Below, piece by piece: positions 4,850 through 26,910 of a stretch of 38,958 nucleotides of DNA (position 1 is its first letter; every line of letters starts with the position of its first letter). This DNA comes from Thermoproteota archaeon (lineage in GTDB: Archaea; Thermoproteota; EX4484-205; JAAOZP01): positions 1 through 38,958 of the forward strand of contig JAVZMD010000002.1 in assembly GCA_038883435.1 (NCBI GenBank), read 5' to 3'. The position numbers and the translations under genes are program-made. The notes beneath the pieces were generated by a model. The model ran no database searches. It had not been told where the DNA came from and saw nothing but the letters and a program-made list of their open reading frames with translations.

Positions 4850-5017
4850 CCTTACGGTTAAGGATTAATTAGGTTTAAAAAAGCAAGTAGCAATCAAACC
4901 TCTCCCTCAGATAACTTGCCTTCTTCATATTGAATCTGGAAATTGCAGACTTAAGAAAAGCTTCAAGACATGTCTTTATATCACTAATATCACTAGTTTA
5001 GTCTTAAACCAATTAGG

Positions 5018-6064
5018 CTACAGCGATCCGCTTAACACTCCATATAGTAGTCCGAAGGTTACGCTTCCAGCCCAAGCTATAAGTATGTATGTGAGAACAA
5101 CTTTCCATCGAACTATCCTTGAAACTGCTAGGGCATTCGCAATATCGTAAGGCTGTCCCATAAGCCAGCTTAGCAAAGCACCTTTTGAAAGTATGACACC
5201 CTCCTTAACCCATATACCTCTTCCCAGGACTATTTCAACCAGCGTCGGTGTATATAATGGCCCACCTAAAACTGAAGCCAGCAACACTCCACCCACTCCC
5301 GTCAAGTACTCCTTTATAATTTCTTCCGGAAGGAAAGCTTCTAAGTAGCCTACGGCTATTAAGCCCATTATGAAGAAGGGCAGGATCTGCTTCGCCAGAT
5401 ACCCCCCAAACTTTAAGGCAGACCAAAGCCTCTCATCCAAGGGAGGCTTAGCGATTTCTACTTTAGCAGCCGAAGCCAAGCTATCAACTTGATGCTCCTT
5501 TTCAACTGCTTTTCCCCATGGGGTTTTGGATATAACTATACCTGCGACTAGAGCTACAGTAACTGACGCTATTATTCTAACGCCTGCTAGCTCCCATGAT
5601 ATGAGTTCGCCCGTAAGCAGAATTGAAAGTATGTTTGCTGCTGGAGCCATTAAGAGGAATGATATTGCTGGGCCTATTCCTGCGCCAGCGTATAGGACTC
5701 CGCCGAAAAGCGGCACCATTGTGCACGAGCAAACCGTTAGGAACGGTGCCATTCCAAGGGCAAGCCCATACCCTAAAACCTTACTGCTTCCCATGTATTT
5801 TGTGATAGCTTCTTTTGGCACGAACTCGTAGATAATGCCGGCGATTGTGAATGCGAAGAGAAGGCATATCCACCCGTGGCTAAAATAGTCGTAGAGATAT
5901 ACTATTGGAATAGCCCACAACGGATAGCCCCTCAACTCGATAGGCGTAGAAGTTGGGGCAAGGGAATATGCCTGTATGCGGCTGTTGATTAGAAGCCCAA
6001 TAACAATTATCACAAACGCTAGGATTACGCTTGCTCTAACAGTCCTCTTAGCCTTCTCCTCCAT
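5018..6064 (-). CDS. Polytopic permease, COG0701/ArsP-like family
   Basis: 348 aa and highly hydrophobic, with the CSCTMVPLF motif typical of this family. Sits directly downstream of a thioredoxin-fold partner gene. Confidence 0.7.
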   Translation of the reverse strand: MEEKAKRTVRASVILAFVIIVIGLLINSRIQAYSLAPTSTPIELRGYPLWAIPIVYLYDYFSHGWICLLFAFTIAGIIYEFVPKEAITKYMGSSKVLGYGLALGMAPFLTVCSCTMVPLFGGVLYAGAGIGPAISFLLMAPAANILSILLTGELISWELAGVRIIASVTVALVAGIVISKTPWGKAVEKEHQVDSLASAAKVEIAKPPLDERLWSALKFGGYLAKQILPFFIMGLIAVGYLEAFLPEEIIKEYLTGVGGVLLASVLGGPLYTPTLVEIVLGRGIWVKEGVILSKGALLSWLMGQPYDIANALAVSRIVRWKVVLTYILIAWAGSVTFGLLYGVLSGSL

Positions 6065-6078
6065 GTGTCTTTCGCCTT

Positions 6079-6378
6079 CTATTTAGCTGCCTCCTCTAAC
6101 AGTTTTTCCACCTCGCCGGGATTCGGAACCCTTCCCATGATTTTAACCGTGCCGTTTATTGCTATGGCTGGGGAAAACAAAACACCGTATTTCTGCACAA
6201 TTTCCTTAGACATTATGTTAGCCTTTTCAACGTTCACCATTACGCCTGACTGCTTAAGCTTCTCAGCAGCTTTTTCCACAGCCTTTCTAACTGCTTGACA
6301 ACGCGCACAAGGCGGCTCAGGACCTATCACTTCAACCCTAATCTCCTTTGTAGGAACATTTCCCCTATTTTCATCCAT
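6079..6378 (-). CDS. Thioredoxin-fold redox-active disulfide protein (CxxC)
   Basis: 99 aa with a CARC motif followed by ...YGVLFSPAIAINGTVKIMGRVP. This pattern is typical of the small 'redox-active disulfide protein 2' family often paired with COG0701 permeases. Confidence 0.7.
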   Translation of the reverse strand: MDENRGNVPTKEIRVEVIGPEPPCARCQAVRKAVEKAAEKLKQSGVMVNVEKANIMSKEIVQKYGVLFSPAIAINGTVKIMGRVPNPGEVEKLLEEAAK

Positions 6379-6598
6379 AATTTTTCACCCCTAGAAACGG
6401 CGGTGTCCTAAAAAACTCATATAAAGCTTTCCCGTTTTCCATTTACATAAGCAGTCCTCATCTATTTTCTATTCAAACCATTTTTTCAGGAAAGAAAAGT
6501 TTAATGCATTAAACTTTGCATAGTCATTAGCTGATTACAATCCACCTTATCAAGATCAATAGTGCATTTTACGCTACACGTGATTCTTGATATCTCAC

Positions 6599-6829
6599 CT
6601 ACGTACCTGAGATCTGGGACATGTATCTTTTAGCAGCCATTCTAACGTCTTCCGCGCGGATGGTTTTTCTCTTTGCAAAGACAGCCAGTTGAGCAGCATC
6701 TCTCGCTATTTTTAAGCCGATTTCTTCTAGTATTCTAGATAGTTCTTCTGCAGCCTCCTCACTCACTCTCTCTCCTCCTGACTTACGGAGAATCCTGTAC
6801 ATAGCCGCTAGGGACAGTTCCTCTGACAT
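6599..6829 (-). CDS. Archaeal histone (histone-fold DNA-binding protein)
   Basis: 76 aa. AAMYRILRKSGGERVSEEAAEEL...IARDAAQLAVFAKRKTIRAEDVRMA matches the HMf-type histone fold including the RKT(I) loop. Confidence 0.8.
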   Translation of the reverse strand: MSEELSLAAMYRILRKSGGERVSEEAAEELSRILEEIGLKIARDAAQLAVFAKRKTIRAEDVRMAAKRYMSQISGT

Positions 6830-7433
6830 GATTTTTACCCTCTTTTGGCTCAGATTAGCATGTTAATAAGTCTTTTCTTTGAAAAAAGACTAGAATTCTG
6901 GACCAAAAACGTTAAAAACGTTATAAACAGCCCCCTTTTATAACTGATAGAGGGTGGAATAAGCAATAAACCTTTCGGGCCAAAGACATAAGAGCCCGTT
7001 TTAAAATAGCGTTTGCTCGATTTTTTCAAAAATGTCTTGAGACCATTGGACGCCAAATCTTTTCTCCATGAATAACGTTATCATTTACTAGCAAATGACA
7101 GTATAACACTAGTTACAATCGAATTTTTCACTTGAAACGCCATTGAAAATTATATTTCAAATGAGGATTTGGAAGAGGAGAAAATATCCCACGAGAAGAT
7201 GCTTCAAGACTGTTTGACGAGTATGAGCCTCAACCCTTGGGAAAAATTAATGATTATAAAAAGTTTTTTGAGAGAAAACGAGACCCGAGGGGTGAGAAGG
7301 CTCAGTTAGAAATAAACTTGTCCAATGTAATCAGTTTTAAAACCCATTGAGACAACTTCAAGACAACTTGTAATCATTTTAAACTTCACCTGACCGAACA
7401 TCATGCCCTGCCATAGGTAGTTGAGAACCGCTC

Positions 7434-8218
7434 TTGGCTGCTTAGCTCTTCCTCCTTCTCCTACGCTTCTTTCTCAGTCCCCATTTTTCTTTGAATTCTT
7501 CTTCGAATTTTTTTCTTTCTCCCCAGTTATGGTTTAAGTTGTACGCGTCGTAGACCATTTTCACCCTTTTAACTATTTCTTCGAATATCTGGTCTTCGCT
7601 CATGCCTTTTGGGTCGAATACCGATGTGTAGCAGGTCCTGCCGACGGGGCCTACTATGAATTCTATGTCCATGCCGTACTTCTCCCTTATTCTTCTCGCA
7701 ACTTCCTCACCCCAGTAGAGGTCTATGAAGGTCCCATACCTCCTCCTCAAACGCTCATCTTTAAGGTATTTCTCCCACCTCTTGTTTATTAAATCGTCTA
7801 AAACCTCCTCTATCTCCCTTTCCCTCTCCTTCCTAATCCTCTCCTTCTCCTCTTCGCTCTTCGCCTTCTCCAATCTACGCCTGTAAAGGTCTGCAGTTAT
7901 TATCTCCAACGCCTCCCCATAGTGCTCTCCTAAAGCATGCGAACTCACCTCGATCCTACCATCGGAGAGCCCATGTACTCCAATGCCTTCATCCAAATCC
8001 GTATTCACATGCCATTCCACACCCCTCAGATAGGGTACGGGCCTATCCACTATCTCATAGGCTAAATCGGGCCTAGTTATCTTATCCTTAAACATCTCGT
8101 TCAAGAAAGCCCCAATCCTCTCCAAAAGCTCCCTACTAACCATCTCCCACAAGCCCACCTCTTCCGAATACTTCAATATAAGGATTTTCATAAGGCCCTA
8201 TGTTGCCAGGGTAAGACG
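7434..8218. repeat. Left arm of a ~785-bp inverted repeat (pairs with 11926..12710)
   Basis: The reverse complement aligns with 11926..12710. The first ~75 nt of the ORFs are identical. Homology runs from ~25 nt upstream of the ATG to 8 nt past the stop (TAAGCAGCCAA) and then breaks. Confidence 0.9.
7442..8191 (-). CDS. Uncharacterised 249-aa highly charged protein with a C-terminal RKKRRRRRKS tail (copy A)
   Basis: Intact ORF differing at 23 of 249 residues from 11953..12702 (my count). Central Glu/Lys/Arg-rich helical stretch. I recognise no family. Confidence 0.75.
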   Translation of the reverse strand: MKILILKYSEEVGLWEMVSRELLERIGAFLNEMFKDKITRPDLAYEIVDRPVPYLRGVEWHVNTDLDEGIGVHGLSDGRIEVSSHALGEHYGEALEIITADLYRRRLEKAKSEEEKERIRKEREREIEEVLDDLINKRWEKYLKDERLRRRYGTFIDLYWGEEVARRIREKYGMDIEFIVGPVGRTCYTSVFDPKGMSEDQIFEEIVKRVKMVYDAYNLNHNWGERKKFEEEFKEKWGLRKKRRRRRKS

Positions 8219-8372
8219 GCTTTTACCATCTATTGCTATGGACGTATTCCTCTCAGCCATTCCGAGCTTTAGCTCCTTTCATTTTTCCTCATTTTACAAT
8301 CTTTTATAATCTAATATAATCTAAGTTGCTCAGGCCTCTTATAGGCCCTTCCCAATTTAACTGGTGGTGGCA

Positions 8373-8519
8373 ATGACTTCCTCCTTAGAGAGCGAGATTA
8401 GGTGTGAAGTAGGTAAATGCGGTCACTGTCATTTCGGGAGTAAACACGTTTGTATGGATGGCCTAGTCTTTAGGTACGGTGAGATGACCACTCTACCAAA
8501 AGGCATATCTCCTTTTTAA
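8373..8519 (+). pseudogene. C-terminal remnant (~48 aa) of a hydrogenase-gamma/AsrB/PyrK-type FAD/NAD oxidoreductase carrying the 2Fe-2S Cys motif
   Basis: SLESEIRCEVGKCGHCHFGSKHVCMDGLVFRYGE matches the family end motif C-x-x-G-K-C-G-H-C...vC.DGpVF. Nothing resembling the ~200-aa N-terminal FAD/NAD domains lies upstream. Confidence 0.6.
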
Positions 8520-8626
8520 GGGAAAATTTCCAGATAGTTGACCCTGCAACTCCCCACTTGAGAATAGCATTGGGGTAATGGTAGCGATTTAAAACTTAAA
8601 AAACCTTAATTTAGGTACAAGTGTCT

Positions 8627-10345
8627 TTAGCGTTTTCTCCACATGACTACTATAATGGCTATTAGGACCAGCATGACTATTAGGCTTACATTCATAATGT
8701 TCAATTCAATCCTCCAGCTCGCAACTAGTGTTACTGGTTCTCTTATAGCGAAAGAATAATTAGAGGAGGTTGAAACTATGCTTCCATTGACCTTCCAGCC
8801 CTCGAAAACGTAGTTAGTGAAGAAATCCCTCGGAATAGCTGTTGGAGATATTGAAACGCTTACCGTTGAGCCGTTAACATATTTCCCAGCTCCCGTTATC
8901 ACTCCTCTTTCACTGTAAACCTTTACTTCGAGTATCGTCGGCTTAACAGCTATCGTCAGAGGAAGCCAATTGATTTCCCCCTCATCATCCCTTACTATAA
9001 GGCTTACCGTGTAATTTCCTTCCTTAGCATACGCGTGAGTTATGCTCTCCCCATAGCCTTCACACCCGTCTCCGAAAAGCCACATCCAGCTAACGATTCT
9101 ACCATCTGGATCGATCGAGTTACTAATGAAAGTAATGTTTTCATTCGAATGGGGCTCCTTCGGCGAATATGTGAAATTTACTATCGGTGGAGAATTGTAA
9201 ACCGTTATTACCTTTTCGCAACTATCTTCAAGCCCCTCATCGTCCTTAACCGTCAGTCTAACAGTATAATTTTCCCTCTTCTTGAATATATGCATTACAA
9301 CTCTTCCAGTCGCATTTTCACCATCTCCAAAATCCCACAGCCAGCTTATTATTCTACCATCTAGATCGGTTGAATTATCCGAAAAGTAAACTTTATCTAT
9401 GCAGGTTATCTTTAGAGGGAAGTGAAAGAAATCTGCCTTTGGTGGCATATTTCCGTATTTAACCAAGGGAAGATAGTCTCCAGGCCCATGTGGAACTTGA
9501 GTATCTCCTATCCCGTCTTTATCCTCATCAGCTCCTGTATAATCGCTCCAACTGTTTCCACCAATCCAAGGTCCACCAATGATGTTCTCGCCTTTGGTCT
9601 TAGTTATATTCCATTTATTTCCAGTGTGGTTGCCGACAATGTTCCAATTCACCTCATTACTAAACCTGTTATTGAAGATCGTGTTATTGCTTGAAAAGTA
9701 AAGTAGAATTCCTAAATAATTTTTAAGAATAGTACAGTTTGCAACGACGCTACTAGAGGAAGAATCAAACATGATTCCGTCTTTATTATCGGATAAAGTA
9801 CAATTGTCTACAATGCCGTTAGAGGAGAGTTTTAGGTAGATGCCGACATCATTACTGAAGATTCGACAACTCTTTATAACGATCTTGGAGGAAGAGTTCT
9901 GAAAGACTCCGATCGTCCCATTACTTATCCTACAGCTAACTATCGTAACGTTAGATGAACCATAAACCATAATCCCAAAGGAATTGTTATGAAGCTCGCA
10001 ATTCTCTATCTTTACGTTCTTCACGTTGTAAAGACAAATTCCAGCATGACTTTTATTCCCCTCTATAACCAGGTTCCTTATGACGAAGTATGAGCTAGTG
10101 TTCCAGATCTCTATTCCATTCATAACAATAGAACTTATACTTAGATTCTCTAATACATATGGCCTCTCTCTTGAGCCATCTCCGCTTACTATTATACTCC
10201 ACATCTTGAAATCCTTATCGCCGTTAATGCATATTGGGCCATGCTTTTTATTTTCCCATTGAGGCTCTGTCTTTATAGGACATGAGAATGCGAATAATAA
10301 TATTAAGGAGAATGTCAGGACGAATACTACAGTGGTATCTTTCAT
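8627..10345 (-). CDS. Secreted, membrane-anchored surface protein: right-handed parallel beta-helix (NosD/PbH1-like) repeats, two PKD domains, a C-terminal Ig-like repeat and a TM anchor
   Basis: N-terminal signal/TM segment. Repeated ~22-aa N..I..C.I..N units. GGNSWSDYTGADEDKDGIGDTQVP motif. Two WxFGDG PKD cores. Hydrophobic C-terminus ending WRKR. Many N-x-S/T sequons. Confidence 0.8.
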   Translation of the reverse strand: MKDTTVVFVLTFSLILLFAFSCPIKTEPQWENKKHGPICINGDKDFKMWSIIVSGDGSRERPYVLENLSISSIVMNGIEIWNTSSYFVIRNLVIEGNKSHAGICLYNVKNVKIENCELHNNSFGIMVYGSSNVTIVSCRISNGTIGVFQNSSSKIVIKSCRIFSNDVGIYLKLSSNGIVDNCTLSDNKDGIMFDSSSSSVVANCTILKNYLGILLYFSSNNTIFNNRFSNEVNWNIVGNHTGNKWNITKTKGENIIGGPWIGGNSWSDYTGADEDKDGIGDTQVPHGPGDYLPLVKYGNMPPKADFFHFPLKITCIDKVYFSDNSTDLDGRIISWLWDFGDGENATGRVVMHIFKKRENYTVRLTVKDDEGLEDSCEKVITVYNSPPIVNFTYSPKEPHSNENITFISNSIDPDGRIVSWMWLFGDGCEGYGESITHAYAKEGNYTVSLIVRDDEGEINWLPLTIAVKPTILEVKVYSERGVITGAGKYVNGSTVSVSISPTAIPRDFFTNYVFEGWKVNGSIVSTSSNYSFAIREPVTLVASWRIELNIMNVSLIVMLVLIAIIVVMWRKR

Positions 10346-10355
10346 CTTAGCTATT

Positions 10356-11090
10356 CTACCTCCTATGCTTAATCAAGAGGTAGGCTGCGATAATACTCAC
10401 AAGTATTATTGGAACGGAATATATCGCCCACATGGAGGGTTTTCCCTCTTCTTCAACTAGGACCTTAGGCTTAATAAGTGGGTAATTATCCATGCTATAT
10501 TCATCTATTACATATGGTCTATCGCCTACTCCATCATCATCTATATCAGTTCCATTGTAATCGTCCCAATAGTTTCCTCCAATATATTTCCCTCCCACTA
10601 TGTTTTTCCCCTCGTGCTTCTCTATGTTCCACTTGCTCGGATAAAACATCGCACCAAAAGCTTCACAGTTCTTCGCCTTTAGAGTAAAATTGCCGTGGAC
10701 TAATATCTTCGTATTGTTAAAGAAGTTGTTGTAGATTAAATTGTCTTTTGCGAAGTCGAGTTTTACTCCTATCTGGTTGTTTCGTATTATGCAGCCCGTA
10801 ACCGTGTTATTATGAGAAAGCAAAAGGCGTATGCCATAACTGTTTCCATATAGTTCGCAGTCTTTTATGACGTTATTCGTTGAATACAGAAGGCTTATTC
10901 CCTCGTAATTATTATAAGCTTTACAGTTAACGATAAGGGTGTTATTAGTTGGAGGAAACCTCAGCTTCATTCCAAGGAAAGATGCCTCTCCATCCTTTAA
11001 TTTTATTCCACTATATGAATTATTGTATACTTCACAGTTTATTATGATTGCATCGAAGGTAGAGGATAAGTAGATGCAGTTAATGAAGCA
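10356..11090 (-). pseudogene. 5'-truncated paralog of the beta-helix surface protein: beta-helix repeats, GGNYWDDYNG..DDDGVGD motif and C-terminal TM anchor
   Basis: The track ORF starts at 10970, but the same frame stays open and beta-helix-like (FINCIYLSSTFDAIIINCEVYNNSYSGIKL) up to ~11090. No signal peptide or plausible N-terminus is present. Similarity ends where the + strand 305-aa gene begins. Confidence 0.6.
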
Positions 11091-12008
11091 GTGACGCTGA
11101 TTTACGTGAAGGAAGGGTCTGTCTGCACGCCCGTGTATAGCCTTAAAGCCGGAGACATTAAATCCGCCTTAAACAGGGCGTTTAAGTGGAAGGAGGATAC
11201 GAAGGGGAGGGAACACATAGGCCTGAAGGAGAAGCTCCTCGTATTGCTCGGCTACCAAGCCTACCAGGATTTGAAGGAGGGAATAGGGAGCAAGTACGGG
11301 ATCCTCGTAGAATTCGACAACGGCAGGAAAGCTTACACCGGAGACGAAAGCATAGCAATCCACGTGCCAGAGGGAGCAAGCAAGATGGAAACGATAGTCG
11401 TGACATCAATAGAAGAAAGAATGCGATACGACCTTCATGAGATAATAGAGTGTTTCGCTCGGGGAGAAGAGAGGGATGCAGCTATTCCAATAGGGCGCGT
11501 CGGCGAGCACATCATATACACTAAACATCTCGATGAAATAAAGGAGCTGATTGTCCAAAAGCTCAGGGAAGACGGAGTCCCTGAGGAGCAGATTTGGTAT
11601 TTCCGCGAGAAGGTGGTTTCAAAGAAATTAGGGACAGATGCTTCTGGAGAGAGGGTGACAGACATAGTTTTTAGGGCTCAGGAGGAGATAGTCCTGGGGG
11701 GAAAGAGGTTTAAGAAGGACGATGTCGTCGCGATAGTGGAGATTAAGAGCACCACTAAAACATACTCCGAGAGCGAATTCAAAGAGAGGTTTGGCGAAGC
11801 AGTGGGAGACCTTAAGAATAAATACGTCAATATTGAAGACTATAAAACCGCCATGTATGGTGTTGCCGTCGCCTTCGGTTTCGAGCCCGAGGAAATGCTG
11901 TGGAGCCTAACGCTATTCAACGAGTTATCTTACCCTAGTAATATAGGGCCTTATGAAAATCCTTATATTGAAGTATTCGGAAGAGGTGGGCTTGTGGGAG
12001 ATGGTTAG
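11091..12008 (+). CDS. Uncharacterised 305-aa protein with a C-terminal PD-(D/E)xK nuclease-like motif
   Basis: GERVTDIVFR (Asp at 11661-11663) followed by DDVVAIVEIKS (Glu 11739-11741, Lys 11745-11747) gives a D...E-x-K arrangement. GTG start. The 3' end overlaps the next gene by 56 nt. Confidence 0.65.
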   Translation: MTLIYVKEGSVCTPVYSLKAGDIKSALNRAFKWKEDTKGREHIGLKEKLLVLLGYQAYQDLKEGIGSKYGILVEFDNGRKAYTGDESIAIHVPEGASKMETIVVTSIEERMRYDLHEIIECFARGEERDAAIPIGRVGEHIIYTKHLDEIKELIVQKLREDGVPEEQIWYFREKVVSKKLGTDASGERVTDIVFRAQEEIVLGGKRFKKDDVVAIVEIKSTTKTYSESEFKERFGEAVGDLKNKYVNIEDYKTAMYGVAVAFGFEPEEMLWSLTLFNELSYPSNIGPYENPYIEVFGRGGLVGDG

Positions 12009-12710
12009 TAGGGAGCTTTTGGAGAGGATTAAAGATTACTTGAGCGAGATGTTTAAGGATAAGATAACTAGGCCCGATTTAGCCTATGAGATAGTGGATA
12101 GGCCCGTACCCTATCTGAGGGGTGTGGAATGGCATGTGAATACGGATTTGGATGAAGGCGTTGGAGTGTTTGGGCTCTCCGATGGTAGGATCCGGGTGAG
12201 TTCGCATGCTTTAGGAGAACATTATAGGGAAGGTTTGGAGATAATAACTGCAGACCTTTACAGGCGTAGATTGGAGAAGGCGAAGAGCGAAGAGGAGAGG
12301 GAGAGGATTAGGAAGGAGAGGGAAAGGGAGATAGAAGAAGTGATGGACGATCTAGTCAACAAGAGGTGGGAGAAATACCTTAAAGATGAGCGTTTGAGGA
12401 GGAGGTATGGGACCTTCATAGGCCTCTACTGGGGTGAGGAGGTTGCGAGAAGGATTAGGGAGAAGTACGGCATGGACATGGAATTCATAGTAGGCCTCGC
12501 GGGCAGGACCGGCTACATATCGGTATTCGACCCAAAAGGCATGAGCGAAGACCAGATATTCGAAGAAATAGTTAAAAGGGTGAAAATGGTCTACGACGCG
12601 TACAATTCGTGGTACGATTTAGGAGAAAGAAAAAAATTCGAAGAAGAATTCAAAGAAAAATGGGGACTGAGAAAGAAGCGTAGGAGAAGGAGGAAGAGCT
12701 AAGCAGCCAA
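11926..12710. repeat. Right arm of the ~785-bp inverted repeat (pairs with 7434..8218)
   Basis: See the left arm. The arms bracket a 3707-bp central segment (8219..11925). Confidence 0.9.
11953..12702 (+). CDS. Uncharacterised 249-aa highly charged protein with a C-terminal RKKRRRRRKS tail (copy B)
   Basis: Intact paralog of 7442..8191. Its start lies inside the 3' end of the PD-(D/E)xK-like gene, in a different frame. Confidence 0.75.
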   Translation: MKILILKYSEEVGLWEMVSRELLERIKDYLSEMFKDKITRPDLAYEIVDRPVPYLRGVEWHVNTDLDEGVGVFGLSDGRIRVSSHALGEHYREGLEIITADLYRRRLEKAKSEEERERIRKEREREIEEVMDDLVNKRWEKYLKDERLRRRYGTFIGLYWGEEVARRIREKYGMDMEFIVGLAGRTGYISVFDPKGMSEDQIFEEIVKRVKMVYDAYNSWYDLGERKKFEEEFKEKWGLRKKRRRRRKS

Positions 12711-12817
12711 CGCAGCATCGGAATATTCTTGGATATCCCTTTTAAGGAGGATGCTGAGCTGGGAGGAATGCTTTTAAGGAGGAGGGTTAAAAAGATGTTT
12801 ACGAAGGGTAGCGGAAA

Positions 12818-15800
12818 ATGTCCCACGAAGAGTTCTCAAAGCTATTCGACGGCGAGTATGATATGCAATTACTTGAGAACAGAGTTTTGGAATTCTGGGA
12901 AGAGAACAAGATACCAGAAGAGCTTAGAAAACTGCGATTAGAAAGAAATATAGGAAAACTTGGATACGTCGAAGGACCGCCGACATTAAACGGTCGTACA
13001 CACCTAGGCCATACGTGGGGCCGCGCAACGAAGGATATGTGGTATAGGTGGAGGTCTATGCAGGGCTATTATGTTCTCTTCAGGGCTGGTTGGGATTGTC
13101 AAGGTTTGCCTGTTGAGATCGAAGCTGAGAAGGAGCTTGGCTTCTCCAATAAGAAGGAGGCTCTTGCTAAGCTTGGTGAGGAGAGATTCATTGAGGAGAT
13201 TAAGAAGATTCTTCACAAGTATCATGCTGACTGGAGGAGGGTTGATAGGAGATTTGGAATGTTTATGGATTACGATAAAGAATATTTCACATATAAGGAT
13301 GAATATATTGAAAGAGAGTGGAAGTATCTTAAGAGGGCTTATGAACAGGGTCTTCTTGGAAAGGGTTATAGGGTCGTAGCGTATTGTCCAAGCTGCCAGA
13401 CTTCACTAAGCAATGCTGAAGTCGGGCAGGAGTACAGTATGGTTGAAGATCCTTCTGTCTACTTTAAGGTTAGGCTTGAAACGGGAGACTATGTCTTGGT
13501 TTGGACGACGATGCCTTTTACAATAGTCACGGATGAGCTCCTAGCTGTGAATCCTGATGCGGAATATGCTAGGGTCAGAGTTGGGGATGAGAGATGGATA
13601 ATGGTTAGTAATCTCGTCGATTCTTTAATGAGCAAGCTGAATATCTCGGATTACGTTGTTGAAGATACTTTTCCTGGAATAGAGCTCGAGGGGAAGAGGT
13701 ATGAGTATCCGCTTATGGAGGAAGTGCCCCGTCAGAAGATGCTTGAAGAAGAGGATAGTAGGATTCACAGGATTGTTACTGCAGGATTCGTAGATGTTAC
13801 TACTGGGACAGGCGTAGTCCATATTGCTCCAGCTAACGGTGAGGAGGACTTTGAGTTGGCACAGATGCTTAAGATACCTATCTTCTCGCCTTTCGACGAT
13901 GAGGCGAAATTCACTGAAGACGCTGGTTTCTTCAAAGGGGTTTTCGCAAGAGATGCTGACCAGATTGTCCTAGACATTCTTGAGAAGAAAGGGCTTTTAG
14001 TTAAATCTGAGAGAATAGTTCACGAATACCCGTTATGCTGGCGTTCTAAGCATAGGCTAATATGGCTGGCTAGGACAGAATACTTCTACTGGCTTGATAA
14101 GATTGTCGATAAGCTTGTAGAAGCAGCTTCTAAAGTAGAATATTTTTACAATCCTCCTAAGAACAGGTTCCTCTCGTTCATAAAAGAGGGTAAGCCCTGG
14201 TGTATTTCGAGAGAAAGAGTCTGGGGTACTCCGATGCCGATATTCGTATGCGAAAAATGTGGAAAGGAGGAGCTCTTAGCATCGAGGAGGGAAATTGTGG
14301 AAAGGGCCTTAAGCCTCCCAGACGGTGAGAACTTCGAGCTCCATAAGCCTTGGATGGACAAGATCAAGATTAAGTGTTCATGCGGGGGAGTTATGCATAG
14401 GGTGCCGTTTGTTCTCGACACTTGGCATAATAGCGGCGCTGCACCCTATTCAAGCCTTACCGACGAGGAGTATAAAGAGTTTGTGCCGGTCGATTTCCTC
14501 GTCGAATCAATAGACCAGACGCGCGGCTGGGCTTTCACACTGCTTGTGGAAAACGTAATAATGACTGGCGAGCCGAAGGCCCCTTACAAAGCTTTTCTCT
14601 TCTACGGTCAAGTCCTCGACGAGAAAGGGAATAAGATGAGTAAGAGCCTTGGAAATGTCATAAATACTGAAGACGTTATTACAAAGTATTCAGCAGACCT
14701 CTGTAGGTTCTACCTTCTTTGGAAAACTAATCCGATAGAGAATATAAACTTCAGCTTCAGCGAGATGATGGAGAGGCCGTATCAGGTTTTGAATACTTTC
14801 TTTAACCTCGGCAAGCTTTTAAAGCAGAATGCTGAGTACGATGGGTTCGACTATGATAAATATAGTTTGCAATGGGCTCTAAGTAATGGTGAAGTTAAAG
14901 ATCCTGAAAGATGGGTTCTATCATGTCTTCAGAAGCTTGTGAAAACGGTGACAGAGGGCTTCAGTACGATGAGGATTCATGAGTCTACAAGAGCCTTGGA
15001 GAAGTTCATCATAGAGGTTTTAAGCAGACAATATGTGCCAATGGTTAGAAAAGACCTTTGGAGCGATGATCCTGCTGAACTTAACCGTAGAATGACAATA
15101 TACGCTGTACTATTCCACTGTCTCACCACCATAGGCAGACTTATGAATCCCATAACACCATTCCTAGCTGAAGCCTTCTACCAAGGGGTTGTGAAAAAAT
15201 TCAGTAGGAAAACATCAGAATCAGTAAATTTTGAAGAATGGCCCAGGCCTGATGGAAAACTCGTGAACGACGAGCTTGAGAAAGACTTTGAGAAAATAAA
15301 CGAAGTAATAAGCCTTGGCAATTGGGCCAGGATGAAGGCCGGAGTAAAAAGAAGATGGCCGTTGAAGCAGATAGTTCTAATACTAAGAGAGGAGTATGCT
15401 GAAAGCGTAAGCAAGAATATTGAAGTCTTAAAGGAATTACTTAACGTCAAAGAAGTACTCTTAAGCAGAAGCCTTGAAGATGCAGGTATTAAAACAATAG
15501 TGAAGCTAAACTACTCCACAGCAGGCCCAAAGTTTAAGGATAAGGCTGGTAAAGTAGCTTCACTAGTAGCAAGTAAAGCGATGGAAGTCGTCAAGGCCAT
15601 AGATAAGGAAGGCAGGTTTCTGCTGAATGTCGATGGAGAAACCGTTGAACTACTTAGGGAAGACCTAGTCTTCGATTACGAGGCGCCGGAGAACCACGTA
15701 ATGGTTTCAGACAAGTCAGGTTTCGCATTACTCGACGTAAGGAGAACACCAGAGCTTATTGCAGAAGGCTATATGAGAGATGTAGCAAGGAGGATCCAAG

Positions 15801-16027
15801 CATACAGGAAGAAGCTTGAATTAAACCCCACGGAAATCCTTAGCAAAGTCACCGTATACGGTGTGACTCAAGAAGGATGTACTCGTCTAAAGCCACTACT
15901 TAACGAGCTTGCAAACCTAGTTAGAGCAAAAACAGTAGAACTAGATACGACAATCCCAGAAAATAAGGAGGGGCTCGGAGAATACGACATAGAGGGCGAA
16001 AAAATCTACATACGAATAAGCAAATAA
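12818..16027 (+). CDS. ileS: Isoleucyl-tRNA synthetase
   Basis: 1069 aa class I aaRS. PPTLNGRTHLGH (HIGH-type motif), KMSKS (GNKMSKSLGN), a CP1 editing-domain-sized insertion and archaeal-type length. Confidence 0.92.
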   Translation: MSHEEFSKLFDGEYDMQLLENRVLEFWEENKIPEELRKLRLERNIGKLGYVEGPPTLNGRTHLGHTWGRATKDMWYRWRSMQGYYVLFRAGWDCQGLPVEIEAEKELGFSNKKEALAKLGEERFIEEIKKILHKYHADWRRVDRRFGMFMDYDKEYFTYKDEYIEREWKYLKRAYEQGLLGKGYRVVAYCPSCQTSLSNAEVGQEYSMVEDPSVYFKVRLETGDYVLVWTTMPFTIVTDELLAVNPDAEYARVRVGDERWIMVSNLVDSLMSKLNISDYVVEDTFPGIELEGKRYEYPLMEEVPRQKMLEEEDSRIHRIVTAGFVDVTTGTGVVHIAPANGEEDFELAQMLKIPIFSPFDDEAKFTEDAGFFKGVFARDADQIVLDILEKKGLLVKSERIVHEYPLCWRSKHRLIWLARTEYFYWLDKIVDKLVEAASKVEYFYNPPKNRFLSFIKEGKPWCISRERVWGTPMPIFVCEKCGKEELLASRREIVERALSLPDGENFELHKPWMDKIKIKCSCGGVMHRVPFVLDTWHNSGAAPYSSLTDEEYKEFVPVDFLVESIDQTRGWAFTLLVENVIMTGEPKAPYKAFLFYGQVLDEKGNKMSKSLGNVINTEDVITKYSADLCRFYLLWKTNPIENINFSFSEMMERPYQVLNTFFNLGKLLKQNAEYDGFDYDKYSLQWALSNGEVKDPERWVLSCLQKLVKTVTEGFSTMRIHESTRALEKFIIEVLSRQYVPMVRKDLWSDDPAELNRRMTIYAVLFHCLTTIGRLMNPITPFLAEAFYQGVVKKFSRKTSESVNFEEWPRPDGKLVNDELEKDFEKINEVISLGNWARMKAGVKRRWPLKQIVLILREEYAESVSKNIEVLKELLNVKEVLLSRSLEDAGIKTIVKLNYSTAGPKFKDKAGKVASLVASKAMEVVKAIDKEGRFLLNVDGETVELLREDLVFDYEAPENHVMVSDKSGFALLDVRRTPELIAEGYMRDVARRIQAYRKKLELNPTEILSKVTVYGVTQEGCTRLKPLLNELANLVRAKTVELDTTIPENKEGLGEYDIEGEKIYIRISK

Positions 16028-16252: not shown

Positions 16253-16343
16253 GCTCCGGTGGTGTAGCCCGGTATAAAAATTCGGATAGCATACTGGCCT
16301 TTCGAGCCAGGGGTCGCGGGTTCAAATCCCGCCCGGAGCACCA
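16253..16343 (+). tRNA. tRNA-Glu(UUC) with encoded CCA and an apparent ~13-nt insertion or non-canonical intron in the D-loop
   Basis: Acceptor GCTCCGG/CCGGAGC, anticodon arm CTGGC-CTTTCGA-GCCAG (TTC at 16301-16303), T arm GCGGG-TTCAAAT-CCCGC, A-CCA. The D-stem GTGT/GCAT encloses a 23-nt loop where 8-11 nt is expected. Confidence 0.85.
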
Positions 16344-17495: not shown

Positions 17496-17580
17496 GCGGG
17501 GGTCGCGTAGCCTGGCCAATCGCGCGAGGCTTAGGACCTCGTCCCGTAGGGGTTCGTGGGTTCAAATCCCACCCCCCGCA
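17496..17580 (+). tRNA. tRNA-Leu(UAG), class II with a long variable arm
   Basis: Acceptor GCGGGGG/CCCCCGC, anticodon arm CGAGG-CTTAGGA-CCTCG, long variable arm (TCCCGTAGGGGTTC), T arm GTGGG-TTCAAAT-CCCAC, discriminator A. Confidence 0.88.
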
Positions 17581-17794
17581 CTATTTTTACTGGTAAAAAC
17601 TCATGTACGCGTTTATCCTTAATTAATCATGAGTTTTGGATAATTAATGATAAGGATTCGTTGCCAAAATCCACCGAATTGACAGCAATATAAGTATCGC
17701 ATTTTCTAGCTTGTAAAAACGAATAATCTAATGAGCATGCAAAATAATTTAAAGTATTGTTATGGTATTCCGATAAATCTGAGGAGGGCTTTAA

Positions 17795-23310: not shown

Positions 23311-24078
23311 TCAGCTAAGCGCTTTCTGTCTTGAGAACAATATTATGCTGACAATACGTGTTAAAAGAGTAATTATTTTGAAAAACAGGGTTGTTAAAAT
23401 AGTCGTATCTGTGAATGTATTTAGTAGGCCTGCTCGGAGAAAATCCACTATGTAAACTAGGGGGTTGATTCTAGCGACCGCAGCTAGCAAATCTGGAAAC
23501 AGATCAATGGGGTAAAACGCTGTACTTGTGAAGATTAAAATGGGCACGAAAAAACTTATCAACGCATTGAATATGTCTTGATCGGTTATTTTTGTTGCAA
23601 TAATCATCGTTACAGATAAGAAAAATATTGTGCCAAGAACCACACCAGTAAAAAATGTTAATATCCCAATTAGGCTTAAGGGGAACCTGAGAATTACGTG
23701 GCTTAGTAAGAGTAGAAAAGTTGTCTGTAATATAACTTGGATTATGGAAGCTATGAACCTGGCAAGGAGGTAGGCTGACTTAGACACGGGGCACGCCATT
23801 AAAAACTCGATCATACCTGTTCTCCTGTCTAAGAATAGTGATATCAGACTACTCATTATACATGTGTTAAGTATAAAAATCGTAAGTATTCCGGGTAAAA
23901 TGAATACCGAATACTCGACATAGACTTCGCCAACTTTAACTGGAGGCATCATTCTACCTAACACGGGTCCAAAGATTAATAGGTATAACAGTGGTTGCAT
24001 AAGTGACAGAAACGGAACTAGCGGCCGCCTCACCCATATTTTCATTTCACGATAAAATAAGGCTAAGATGCCACTCAT
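23311..24078 (-). CDS. ABC-2 type transporter permease
   Basis: 255 aa, about 6 TM segments, typical ABC-2 N-terminus (ALFYREMKIWVRRP). Directly downstream of the ATPase remnant with an overlapping stop/start. Confidence 0.75.
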   Translation of the reverse strand: MSGILALFYREMKIWVRRPLVPFLSLMQPLLYLLIFGPVLGRMMPPVKVGEVYVEYSVFILPGILTIFILNTCIMSSLISLFLDRRTGMIEFLMACPVSKSAYLLARFIASIIQVILQTTFLLLLSHVILRFPLSLIGILTFFTGVVLGTIFFLSVTMIIATKITDQDIFNALISFFVPILIFTSTAFYPIDLFPDLLAAVARINPLVYIVDFLRAGLLNTFTDTTILTTLFFKIITLLTRIVSIILFSRQKALS

Positions 24079-24575
24079 TACTCAAACCTCCTTCCTGTTA
24101 AACGGAGGTACATGTCTTCTAAAGTTGTCTCTCTGGAGATTATTTTTGTAATTCGCAGGCCGAACTTTTTAACAGTTCTCATAACATCCTCGGCTACTGA
24201 CTCGTCTTCAACATAAATGAAAAAGCACCCTGCAGTATAAATTTCCTTTACTCCCGATAAATCATACAAGGCTTTTTTCAATTCACTGAACTCCGCATCA
24301 CTAACGTTTACCACACTCAATTCAATCACTTTGGAGGTTGGTAGAGTACGCATAAGCTGTTGTAGGCTGCCTAATGCTATTATTTTACCCTCATCAATAA
24401 CAGCTATTCTCGAACAAAAGCGCTTCAACTTCTTCCATTGAGTGGGATGTCAGGAAAATAGTTTTCCCCTGTTTGACTCGGATCTGATGATTCCCCAGAG
24501 CCTTCTTCGTGCATATGGGTCTAAACCTAAGGAGGGTTCATCTAGAACAGTAACTGAGAAGGAGATAATCCGACT
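24078..24575 (-). pseudogene. ABC transporter ATP-binding protein, 5'-truncated and frameshifted
   Basis: Reading the minus strand gives VLDEPSLGLDPYARRRLW (Walker B/D-loop), then a frameshift, GKTIFLTSHSMEEVEAL, another frameshift, and CSRIAVIDEGKIIA plus the C-terminal domain. No Walker A or LSGG signature is found upstream. Confidence 0.75.
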
Positions 24576-24775
24576 GCCTTAGAGTGGGAACATGCTAAAG
24601 CTTTCTCGGAAAAAGTTGCCGCCTTATTCTTGCTCCGAGAGAAGCTAGAAAAGAAGAGAGTCTTCTCGCTATCCTTTCCGCTTCATCTAGAAGAAAAGCG
24701 GCTTCAATGAAAATAAGCAGGTGTGGAAGTAGAGAAAGCAATTGAAGAAGCGAGGAAAACAACCGAAGAAGCTTA

Positions 24776-24993
24776 AAGTAGTTCTAGACACTAATATTCT
24801 TGCCTCAGCTCGGCTTTAGTAGGGGGACGAGTCTAAAATCGTTGAAATGATTGAAAACGGCCTTGTTACCGGCTACACCTCGCCCCAGTTAATACAGGAG
24901 TTTGAAAAAGTTATGAATTACCCTAAGTTCAGGCTTTCTGAGGAAGAGATAACGAGCGTTTATTGCCGTGGCAATCGTAGAGTGCAGCTCTAA
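24776..24993 (+). pseudogene. PIN-domain toxin remnant (PIN_3-like), disrupted and truncated
   Basis: KVVLDTNILASA... is followed by tandem stops (TAG TAG), then ...KIVEMIENGLVTGYTSPQLIQEFEKVMNYPKF. Only about half of a PIN domain remains. Confidence 0.55.
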
Positions 24994-25018
24994 AACTTTA
25001 GCCACGGTCTAGCGCGTG

Positions 25019-25384
25019 CTAAGACGTGCCCGACTGCTTCCTACGCAGTAGTTGCTCTATGGCCTTCGAGACAACTTGCTTGCTTTCAACGACGTAATCC
25101 TCAGGCAAGTGGTCCTCGTAGAAGTTTACGTGCAGGCTCTCAGCATGGCGGAAAACCTCCCTAAGCCTTAGGTCAGGGTACTCCTTATCCAGCTCAGCCA
25201 CGAACACGGCTATGCTCCTATGCGTTCCCAGGCTGATTCCCCTTTCCGAAGCCAAGGCCTTCAAGGCTTCCACGAAAGCCCCCCAAATCTTCTCAGACGC
25301 CTGGGGATAATCCTTTTTAACAATAAGCTCCTCAGCCTCCTTCAAATACTTCGCGTTAAGCCTAAGGTAATCCTGCTTAGACAC
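25019..25384 (-). CDS. PaREP1/PaREP8-family protein (HEPN-like helical domain)
   Basis: YLKEAEELIVKKDYPQASEKIWGAFVEALKALASERG and ...FRHAESLHVNFYE match the archaeal PaREP1 pattern. Confidence 0.75.
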   Translation of the reverse strand: MSKQDYLRLNAKYLKEAEELIVKKDYPQASEKIWGAFVEALKALASERGISLGTHRSIAVFVAELDKEYPDLRLREVFRHAESLHVNFYEDHLPEDYVVESKQVVSKAIEQLLRRKQSGTS

Positions 25385-25519
25385 TATTCTACATACGAAT
25401 ATAATCCTTGTTTTTAAGGTTTTTCAAGCTATGGGAAGGTTGACCTCTCGTAACATCACGGCCTAACTTCTTTTACGGCTTTTATCCTACTGCTTTTCTC
25501 CTCTTCCTCAAGCCCAGCT

Positions 25520-25903
25520 TATGCTTCTGATGAGCATTTCCCTGAACTGCTTATCCAGAGCAGGGTGCTGAAATAGGGGAAGCAGAATTTATTGGGGGAG
25601 AGGTTGAGATTGAAGTTACGAAGGAAAGAGTGGACTTAGTCTTCAGGACGAAGGATAATCAACTCGTAATTGCAGAGGCTAAGCAAGACTTCTGAAGAAG
25701 AACTAGCAGAAAACATTAAAAATGGTTTAAACCAATTGAAACGCTATAAAAAGCATATCAAAGAGTATGGTTTTGACTTAACCAAGGAAGGCCTAGGCGT
25801 CGAGAAGGGGGAGAACATTAAGGGTTACATGGTTGTTTACGTTTACTTCGACCTCAAGAATAAAGAGATAGAAGTAGGGTATGAGTTGTTGCCAGAAGGC
25901 TAG
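25520..25903 (+). pseudogene. HsdR-N-like PD-(D/E)xK nuclease-domain gene, frameshifted
   Basis: Three frame segments: ASDEHFPELLIQ..., then ...GEAEFIGGEVEIEVTKERVDLVFRTKDNQLVIAEAKQDF followed by a stop (TGA 25693-25695), then SEEELAENIKNGLNQLKRYKKHI... (track ORF 25670..25903). Confidence 0.6.
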
Positions 25904-25913
25904 GAAATGGCTA

Positions 25914-26156
25914 ATCACGCAACCATCCCCAGGGAATCGACCCCCACTCGAATTTCCAGTCCCTCTCCCTCTCCAACTTCTTAAACTCTTCCCTACTCAG
26001 CACGACCACTGTTATTCGCTCGCCCTCGATCTGACAATATCGGTATCCAGTGTCCTCGATGTAATCGTATTTCAACGCGATCTCGATGCTATGCCTCTTA
26101 CCCTTAAAATTTAAGCTAACCTCTTGTATTAACCACTTCGATCCTTCCGGAGTGAG
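25914..26156 (-). pseudogene. Open 81-codon frame without a start codon (LTPEGSKWLIQEVSLNFKGKRHSIEIALKYDYIEDTGYRYCQIEGERITVVVLSREEFKKLERERDWKFEWGSIPWGWLRD); probable gene fragment
   Basis: Protein-like composition, bounded by TAG at 26157-26159 and the stop at 25911-25913. There is no ATG/GTG/TTG near its 5' end. Confidence 0.3.
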
Positions 26157-26215
26157 CTATCTTGAACTTACGTTCGTAGGCTGGAAAACACCCCTGGATA
26201 TCCTAGCAAGCCTAT

Positions 26216-26584
26216 TCAAGATGGCGATGCCCATTTAGCATCTATAACTGTTTCAACCTCTTCCAATATAACCCTCTTAGAGTCAAAACGTATCAATTCA
26301 CGGTCTATTTCGAAATCACTCGCCTTCGTCCAGTATCTTTCGCGATCGTAGAAATCCATAACTGTCCCCGAATGTAAAAGTCCCTCCCCCCACCAACTGA
26401 TTGAATACTTGATTTCCTCTCCGAGAATCTTATCAAGAATCTCCTCCGAGGATATGTGGGAATAATCTTTGAAGAAATCCATTTTGCGGAGATACTCTAT
26501 TGAATCTATGAGTCACTTCCTAAGCTCAGGATTTACCATCCCATGATTAACTATGAAGCCAAACTTTTTAAACGTAACGCTCAC
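26216..26584 (-). pseudogene. Unknown protein interrupted by an in-frame TGA (88-aa track ORF plus a 34-codon in-frame upstream extension)
   Basis: The same frame reads VSVTFKKFGFIVNHGMVNPELRK-TGA-LIDSIEYLRK-MDFFKDYSH.... The 88-aa distal part (26216..26482) could still be expressed alone. Confidence 0.4.
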
Positions 26585-26706
26585 GCGTGCTTAAAATCAG
26601 TTAGCGGCGGTTCCTCAAGCATCTTAACAGAATGCAATATAATCTGGCAACTAAAAAGAATCAATAAATAATTATAAATAATTTTTTCATAGATTGATTA
26701 TGAAAG

Positions 26707-26803
26707 TGGGCCGAGCCAGACTCGAACTGGCAGCCTCCTGCGCTTGCTGTGCGTTTTTTCACGCATGTCAGGCAGGCGTCCTAACCACTTAGACGATCGG
26801 CCC
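26707..26803 (-). tRNA. tRNA-Val(GAC) with a 23-nt intron at the canonical 37/38 position (intron 26743..26765)
   Basis: Acceptor GGGCCGA/TCGGCCC, anticodon stem CCTGC/GCAGG, loop CTGACA|intron|C, T arm GCCAG-TTCGAGT-CTGGC, discriminator A. The intron contains a TGCGT/ACGCA hairpin. Confidence 0.85.
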
Positions 26804-26910
26804 ACGTTATTCTAGAGATATTTCTGTTTGGGGGGATTTTAACTTTTCTCTCGTTAATCGGCTGTTGAAAATGGTTTGGTTTAGAGTTTTAAAAGAGCCT
26901 GATTCTATGT

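Follow-up and report, generated by a model that had tools for sequence, protein, structure and literature searches.

A small protein-coding gene is present twice, in inverted orientation, in a 38,958-nt stretch of archaeal DNA (contig JAVZMD010000002.1; we refer to the whole stretch as the window), and the 3,707-nucleotide (nt) segment enclosed by the two copies is assembled in one orientation in some related metagenomic contigs and in the opposite orientation in others. We consider it probable that this is an inversion polymorphism produced by general homologous recombination between the inverted gene duplicates. A genome scan with IleRS, encoded by the right neighbour of the locus, places the lineage in Candidatus Brockarchaeota, a phylum known from hot-spring metagenome-assembled genomes (MAGs) (PMC8065059). 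Events of this type are already known, the lineage is a little-known one and no new recombination mechanism is revealed; the locus provides a clean comparative case of a small duplicate-mediated inversion in an uncultured archaeal phylum, illustrates the way in which such islands decay and become rearranged, and means that contigs crossing the locus may be assembled in either orientation.

The two arms of the repeat, the left carrying copy A of the gene (7434..8218, minus strand) and the right carrying copy B (11926..12710, plus strand), are mutual reverse complements in which position a of one arm pairs with position 20144-a of the other, as a sequence-only reading of the window had proposed. 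Aligned base-by-base they differ at 54 of 785 positions (93.1% identity) with no indels, and form a single ungapped repeat. The differences fall in 12 clusters, the outermost 89 nt (7434-7522/12622-12710) are 100% identical, the longest identical stretch is ~115 nt and the homology stops abruptly at either end; the repeat tool reports the arms as two pieces, one of 678 nt at 94% (7539-8216/11928-12605) and the other being the outermost 89 nt. The arms are the sole repeat of ≥35 nt in the window (searched at 5000-15000, then in full), and an inverted repeat of 785 nt is far beyond chance. They are not an assembly collapse, since they differ at 54 sites and the two-arm layout was assembled independently in other metagenomes, which disposes of the collapsed or chimeric repeat that the sequence-only reading had allowed for.

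Each arm consists of the last ~75 nt of a gene for a giant membrane protein (described below), the intact small gene and 8-14 nt of 3' flank. The repeat reaches 14 nt beyond the stop codon in window copy A and in the related contigs L007, L010, L011 and L012 (GCAGCCAAGAGCGG), so that the end first read at 8 nt past the stop in both copies holds only as the shorter value of this range. The 249-codon open reading frames (ORFs) noted in each arm (7442..8191, minus; 11953..12702, plus) are indeed intact, but distant homologues begin at M17 of the window protein, and residues 1-16 are disordered (predicted local distance difference test, pLDDT, 30) in an AlphaFold2 (AF2) model of the arm protein (pLDDT 79, predicted template modelling score 0.75). 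The true start is therefore probably M17, giving a product of 233 amino acids (aa) from 7442..8143 on the minus strand in copy A and 12001..12702 on the plus strand in copy B, where there is an 8-nt overlap with the stop of the giant remnant; on this start ~75 nt of the giant 3' end is retained in each arm and not the ~25 nt estimated before. Copy A is accordingly a stub of a two-gene unit, as had been suggested. The two proteins are ~91% identical. The ratio of non-synonymous to synonymous substitution rates (dN/dS) is 0.31 between the copies and 0.05-0.11 between the copies and L001 (0.05 for copy A), compared with 0.04-0.08 for IleRS; judged by these ratios, both copies are functional genes under purifying selection.

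The evidence for inversion comes from related contigs, all from short-read metagenome assemblies, with the orientations coming from separate samples. L010 (Ga0209394, 94-98% identical to the window) has the window orientation, running from the inner part of arm A through the spacer, a beta-helix gene tail (minus), the giant remnant (plus) and the arm into IleRS, and L011 (Ga0209080, 95-99.7%) has the same layout. L008 (JGI 3300022544, 93-98%) is flipped: inner arm, giant remnant (minus), beta-helix tail (plus), spacer, arm, IleRS. Nucleotides 1-2149 of L008 are the reverse complement of 1-2149 of L010 at 99.6%, and both contigs run on identically into IleRS. L012 (Ga0105163, 94.8%) joins the left flank to the outer end of the left arm, an independent instance of the window's outer junction.

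A further contig, L007 (SRR28530380, 10 kb, 87-96% to the window), has a single arm in the order thiC, archease, histone, beta-helix genes (plus), spacer, arm, IleRS. Its spacer-arm junction is the same duplication junction as that of window arm A, yet here it adjoins IleRS. The junction between histone and beta-helix genes (window ~6988|10835) lies inside beta-helix coding sequence and shows a 4-nt CATA microhomology, so that L007 is most simply explained as a deletion derivative of a flipped two-arm genome. As L007 holds no repeat, its arrangement is not an assembler's choice. The right-hand side of the locus is the ancestral side, since no break separates the last 305 codons of the giant from copy B and IleRS. 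Collinearity of window 11071-16026 extends to L001-L006 (73-76% nucleotide identity) and to L009, and because this is the outgroup order of giant, small gene and IleRS, we take the window orientation as ancestral and conclude that at least one real flip has happened. Inversion of the central segment by recombination between the arms, one of three events first put forward for the locus, is thus the one these contigs support, through L010 and L011 against the flipped L008 and through the junction in L007.

Exchange between the arms and the origin of the inversion

We scored the contigs at the 54 sites which distinguish the A and B arms of the window. The arm of L007 is A-type at arm positions 1-119 and mostly B-type beyond, in L010 and L011 the arm next to IleRS is B-type at 1-119, A-type at 235-593 and B-type at 681-696, and in L008 the arm in that position reads A (1-17), B (106-119), A (235-576) and B (681-693). 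L012 carries a 3-nt insertion allele close to the 3' end of its left arm, whereas L008 carries it in the arm beside IleRS; this difference in side, together with the mosaic arms, indicates that alleles have moved between the left and right copies. Alleles are clustered at site level (p < 1e-5), and the patterns point to patchwise exchange (gene conversion and/or crossovers) and not to mapped crossovers; mapping of single crossovers from the mosaics was dropped, as the runs test was not significant at cluster level.

The densest cluster of differences between the copies is a hypervariable patch at residues 219-223 of the arm protein (7523-7538/12606-12621), where 12 of 16 nt differ. The patch reads LNHNW in copy A (similar to SNHNR in the outgroup), SWYDL in copy B and L007, and SWYDW plus a one-codon insertion in L008 and L012, and it sits within an otherwise conserved C-terminal helix region.

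The sequence of events which best fits these data would begin with a unit of a 384-aa gene, the giant, the small gene and IleRS, the giant being cut to its last 305 codons in the window lineage. A copy of the last ~75 nt of the giant, the small gene and 14 nt would have been placed in inverted orientation ~3.7 kb away, beyond two beta-helix genes. Recombination between the facing 785-nt copies would then flip the enclosed segment with no gene lost, and the same recombination would carry sequence patches between the copies with no dedicated recombinase. Each inversion would swap the inner neighbour upstream of each copy, the spacer and beta-helix side being exchanged for the giant-remnant side, and the polymorphism is probably close to neutral. 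General homologous recombination is favoured as the agent because the ORFs scanned, between window positions 127 and ~26,500, gave no recombinase, integrase or transposase domain (no recombinase gene was found within ~10 kb), the arms lack terminal inverted repeats and target-site duplications (their ends show no relation to one another, and the bases beside them do not recur), the module was not found on the viral contigs scanned, and the arms are long, with identical stretches of up to ~115 nt.

Several observations weigh against this account. The two orientations were seen in different samples and not together in one; only the flipped-type junction was seen, with no complete flipped long form. 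The starts of both L008 and L010 fall within the left arm, ~140 nt in, and linkage of the segment to IleRS relies on assembly across stretches shared by the two arms, which measure 89 nt in the window and, at the inner end of the L008 and L010 strains, at least 125 nt, so that L008 alone could be an assembler's choice. When the sites are collapsed to the 12 clusters the block pattern is not significant (runs test p = 0.05-0.46). The contig ends also speak for the main rival, in which the inverted duplication is real but fixed in orientation and no longer invertible, the flip in L008 being an assembler path through near-identical arms: L012 ends within an arm, L016 begins 16 nt before IleRS, the arms of the L008 and L010 strains show no difference between arm position 18 and at least position 140, and an artefactual double path switch gives the same product as a real crossover. 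We regard a fixed orientation as unlikely nonetheless, as the single-arm L007, with spacer, arm and IleRS in succession and a unique deletion junction, requires at least one real flip, no identical stretch of the window arms exceeds ~115 nt, which is below standard read length, and arm alleles have clearly swapped sides among samples.

Two further explanations invoke dedicated machinery. A programmed phase-variation switch, with catalysed or regulated inversion toggling a small-gene copy, the beta-helix genes or read-through into IleRS by means of a promoter-bearing spacer, would fit the outward transcription of both arm genes from the segment, whereby upstream regions swap on inversion, as well as the surface proteins in the segment (as in many bacterial invertible elements) and the TATA-like AT-rich runs in the spacer. 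We judge such a switch very improbable: no recombinase is present among the window ORFs scanned, the arms are 785-nt gene copies and not short sites (no separate short inverted-repeat pair was reported), the beta-helix genes flip along with their own upstream regions, a promoter swap changes little between copies whose proteins are so similar, and the segment is decaying by deletion in every strain, with the beta-helix genes of L007 in five fragments. Two insertions of a small mobile element, or a composite transposon with beta-helix cargo, are close to what had first been suggested; the geometry resembles a composite transposon, and an accessory island at a variable site and a distant family member (L036) which adjoins integrase-like and serine recombinase genes are in keeping with it. 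The arm protein, however, has no transposase or integrase signature and its weak fold matches are chaperone-like and not transposase-like, the arm ends lack the repeats and duplications of a transposon, the inner arm end falls within giant coding sequence, and the outer end is set 50-85 nt in from the edge of the island. On the copy B side the vertically inherited order of giant, small gene and IleRS is kept, and the family is rare (54 representatives at the 50% level), occurs in every case together with the giant C-terminal domain and is present in only two copies in the window. These features leave a mobile-element origin scarcely credible, and recombination between inverted gene duplicates remains the explanation we favour.

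An accessory island in decay

The arms lie within an accessory island of ~5.8 kb (6950..12764) between a histone gene (6599..6829, minus strand) and the IleRS gene (12818..16027, plus strand). The island is absent from nine related Brockarchaeota genomes (L017, L018, L019, L022-L026 and L033), in which the gene order is archease-(ArsP-thioredoxin)-histone-IleRS and the histone-IleRS gap is ~230-690 nt, or, in L025 and L026, 2.1 kb occupied by unrelated housekeeping-type genes. The empty sites match the window up to ~6927-6950 and again from ~12764-12797, and because the small gene, the giant and the beta-helix genes are missing from all nine, we interpret window ~6950-12764 as a decaying accessory island. 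In other lineages this position upstream of IleRS is taken by the full module (L001-L006 and L020) or by no more than a stub of the 384-aa gene (L021). In none of the relatives compared was the window arrangement found with intact flanking genes, a finding that would have made the remnants described below a misreading. The part of the island left of arm A (6951..7433) contains no recognised gene, its ORFs having no Pfam match; it is conserved in L012 (aligned from window 7612 to 92 at 94.8%) and absent at the empty sites.

A second presence/absence polymorphism adjoins the island. Genes for an ArsP permease and a thioredoxin occupy the archease-histone interval in the window (4850-6600) and in L024 (96% and 89% aa identity) and are absent from most other relatives, and L007 (1091-1396) keeps only a 130-nt remnant of them (window 5879-6010).

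The enclosed segment carries an intact gene for a beta-helix/NosD/PKD surface protein (8627..10345, minus strand; 572 aa; PF13229 E 3e-39, PF05048 E 2e-38, PF18911 E 3e-37) with an N-terminal signal and a C-terminal transmembrane anchor, and a 5'-truncated beta-helix gene (10356..11065, minus strand), in which the ORF from the first ATG (10356..10970, 204 aa, PF05048 E 2e-20) is extended by beta-helix-like open frame to ~11065. The truncated gene meets the truncated giant head-to-head at 11066..11070, homology to the giant of L001-L006 beginning at 11068-11071. On the other side, the C-terminal remnant of an AsrB/HydG-type 2Fe-2S oxidoreductase (8364..8519, plus strand, 51 codons; TIGR02911 positions 222-257 of 261, E 1e-8; PF10418 E 2e-4) matches only the last ~36 residues of such subunits. 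The Pfam and TIGR matches and the open-frame check thus bear out the two beta-helix genes, the stranded oxidoreductase C-terminus and the 5' truncation that had been read inside the arms. The suggestion that broken genes lie at both inner junctions fails, as neither touches an arm boundary: the oxidoreductase remnant is 146 nt from arm A and the break at ~11068 is 858 nt from arm B. The oxidoreductase stub moves with the spacer (8219..8626) in all contigs, and the spacer, which is AT-rich with TATA-like runs at ~8290-8325 and is 96-99% collinear with L007, L008, L010 and L011, travels with the beta-helix 3' end.

Two forms of the segment exist. In the short form (L008, L010 and L011) the break on the beta-helix side is at window position 9069, within the 572-aa gene's second PKD domain, and what follows it is giant coding sequence that begins 156 nt further 5' than in the window, and the long form (window and L007) keeps ~2 kb more of the beta-helix genes. 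As each form keeps sequence which the other lacks, the two represent independent deletions from a longer ancestor with divergently oriented giant and beta-helix neighbours. All three broken genes (beta-helix, giant and oxidoreductase) would, by this comparison, go back to older, separate deletions in a decaying island and not to the arms or to inversion.

The sole direct repeat of the region (57 nt, 79%; window 9066-9122/9321-9377) is the PKD domain pair of the 572-aa protein, and the short-form break at 9069 falls at the very start of its first copy. The beta-helix genes of L007 (1792-3968) are called as five fragments (92, 48, 174, 198 and 146 aa) despite 96% identity to the intact genes of the window, and appear pseudogenised unless these are assembly errors. 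Exact-protein look-ups of the 572-aa beta-helix protein and a 300-aa giant remnant returned no other contig, and no Rfam RNA family was found in the region. The GC skew changes sign at ~10.5-11 kb, which in our reading only reflects the change of coding strand between the head-to-head genes.

Elsewhere in the window, a second decayed-looking patch (24078-26900) includes ~1.5 kb of short unannotatable ORFs. Within it, a 116-aa ORF (24078..24428) matches only the C-terminal domain of a DrrA-type ABC ATPase, weakly (E 3e-4), and adjoins an intact permease gene (23311..24078); a PaREP1/HEPN protein is encoded at 25019..25384 (E 4e-18). Rfam reports transfer RNAs (tRNAs) at 16258-16334 (35.9 bits) and 26707-26803 (53.7 bits, 97 nt) which ARAGORN does not, and these may be intron-containing archaeal tRNAs; the only tRNA found by both is a tRNA-Leu at 17496-17581.

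The small protein and its giant partner

The remnant next to copy B (11071..12008, plus strand) contains an ORF of 305 aa from a GTG at 11091, which overlaps the start of copy B. It had been read as a stand-alone, PD-(D/E)xK-like partner gene, but is instead a C-terminal remnant, 70% identical over its full length to residues 1387-1689 of the 1689-aa giant (E 8e-143), whose gene immediately precedes the small gene in related MAGs; the dN/dS of the remnant is 0.23. The ancestral-type layout of a 384-aa gene, the giant, the small gene and IleRS is found in L001-L006 and L009. The giant has an N-terminal signal or anchor, ~800 residues of immunoglobulin-like extracellular sequence, a cluster of transmembrane helices at ~800-975 and a C-terminal region of ~700 residues, and with this architecture it looks like an integral membrane protein and not a secreted toxin.

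The C-terminal domain of the giant also stands alone as a 230-320-aa gene in other archaea, and in every context examined (L001-L006, L009, L013-L015, L036-L038 and window copy B) the small gene is directly 3' of a homologue of this domain, often overlapping it. The upstream partner is part of the giant in L001-L006 and L009 (small gene 231-242 aa), a separate gene of 307 aa in L013 (small gene 219 aa) and of 317 aa in L036 (224 aa), a 551-aa gene in L037 (241 aa), a pair of 1110-aa and 275-aa genes in L038 (234 aa), a partner of at least 382 aa in L015 (445 aa, a tandem fusion) and a 106-aa stub in L014 (221 aa). From this gene order, the giant C-terminal domain and the small gene form a conserved, uncharacterised two-gene module, restricted to Thermoproteota-type archaea, which merits functional study. 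The source contig of L001 (JAVZDI010000003.1, 296 kb) has a second paralogue of the C-terminal domain, P0078 (577 aa, QXI42_04415; the small gene is QXI42_04255). In L036 (953-5956) the domain and small-gene pair adjoins a Phage_integr_3 protein and a large serine recombinase, a context which hints that the module is able to sit on a mobile element.

The arm protein itself has no family match in Pfam, NCBIfam, PHROGs or PADLOC and none in a sequence-profile search of the PDB. Apart from the window proteins, a word-indexed search of 5.8 billion proteins found only four relatives; a profile search run exhaustively over 1.84 billion representatives gave a family of 54 at the 50% level, and a scan of genome contigs added no locus. 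With Foldseek, the model of the arm protein gave weak matches to type III-secretion-chaperone-like structures in the PDB (best E 1e-3, template modelling (TM) score 0.29-0.53) and a match to an uncharacterised archaeal-virus protein in BFVD (E 3e-6, TM score 0.43). Some family members of ~440 aa (L015 1153-2490, P0010, P0014, P0015 and P0017) are two tandem small-protein domains fused together, with two hidden Markov model domains in L015 (E 9e-64), from which it follows that duplication of the small gene recurs in other lineages, in direct and not inverted orientation there.

A nuclease fold for the 305-aa ORF was sought and found no match in Pfam, NCBIfam or PDB profiles, nor in Pfam at E ≤ 10 with the C-terminal 125 aa, and the AF2 model of the domain (pLDDT 38) is unusable for fold assignment. 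Among the putative PD-(D/E)xK residues D191 and E217 are invariant and K219 is not (it is E in P0008); this lysine is the sole point counting against the putative nuclease assignment, which was not confirmed. The profile of the giant C-terminal domain weakly matches a designed double-psi beta-barrel (PDB 7dww, E 0.003) at residues 47-83 of the ORF (window 11229-11339), so that the best-conserved part of the domain may contain a small beta-barrel element.

It is conceivable, though we think it improbable, that the pair is an undescribed archaeal conflict or addiction module, in which the C-terminal domain is an effector and the small, chaperone-like protein its neutraliser. Such a role would account for intact small genes kept under purifying selection after decay of the partner (window copy A, L007 and L014), and also for tandem duplication or fusion (L015 and several ~440-aa members) and placement in variable islands; the inverted duplicate would then be an orphan 'protector' gene, with recombination flipping the segment and shuffling allele patches, including residues 219-223. 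Scans of Pfam, NCBIfam, the PADLOC library and PDB profiles recognised no toxin, nuclease or immunity family, the divergence of the giant trunk (43% identical) and of its C-terminal domain (29-45%) is similar, and no positive evidence for an effector-neutraliser relation was obtained.

Comparison with known systems

Flip-flop of the plastid large inverted repeat, and inversions between rrn operons or insertion sequence (IS) copies in bacterial chromosomes, proceed by general homologous recombination. The Brockarchaeota locus shares with these its long, similar inverted repeats, both orientations of the segment, homogenisation of a gene-conversion kind, the lack of a dedicated recombinase and the loss of no gene, but differs in that the repeat is a protein-coding paralogue pair of 785 nt at 93%, the segment is 3.7 kb within an accessory island of an uncultured archaeon, and the orientations come from separate samples. 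With Hin/Gin/Cin, the fim switch, shufflons and Bacteroides invertons it has in common invertible DNA bounded by inverted repeats and carrying or adjoining surface-protein genes. Those systems, however, have short repeats (~10-30 bp), a nearby serine or tyrosine recombinase and a promoter or alternative coding ends in the segment; here neither a recombinase gene nor short sites turned up, and no search was made for alternative coding ends.

Composite transposons likewise have two inverted gene-bearing units around cargo genes, but the arms here are without transposase, terminal inverted repeats or target-site duplications, end on one side inside another gene and are not multi-copy. The two-gene module resembles toxin-immunity and toxin-antitoxin pairs in that a small gene lies immediately 3' of the gene for a large protein's C-terminal domain and outlives a decayed partner (window copy A, L007 and L014), and in that the pair occurs in variable regions; it differs in having no recognised toxin, nuclease or immunity family, a non-conserved ExK lysine, a C-terminal domain no more variable than the trunk and a membrane-like giant. 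Among archaea, Cossu et al. (2017, PLoS Genet, PMC5495485) attribute the integrase-driven chromosomal inversions of Thermococcales to something other than the native homologous recombination machinery. Those inversions, like the one described here, were seen by comparing close relatives, but the Brockarchaeota locus has homologous arms of 785 nt and no integrase, and the mechanism there appears to be a different one.

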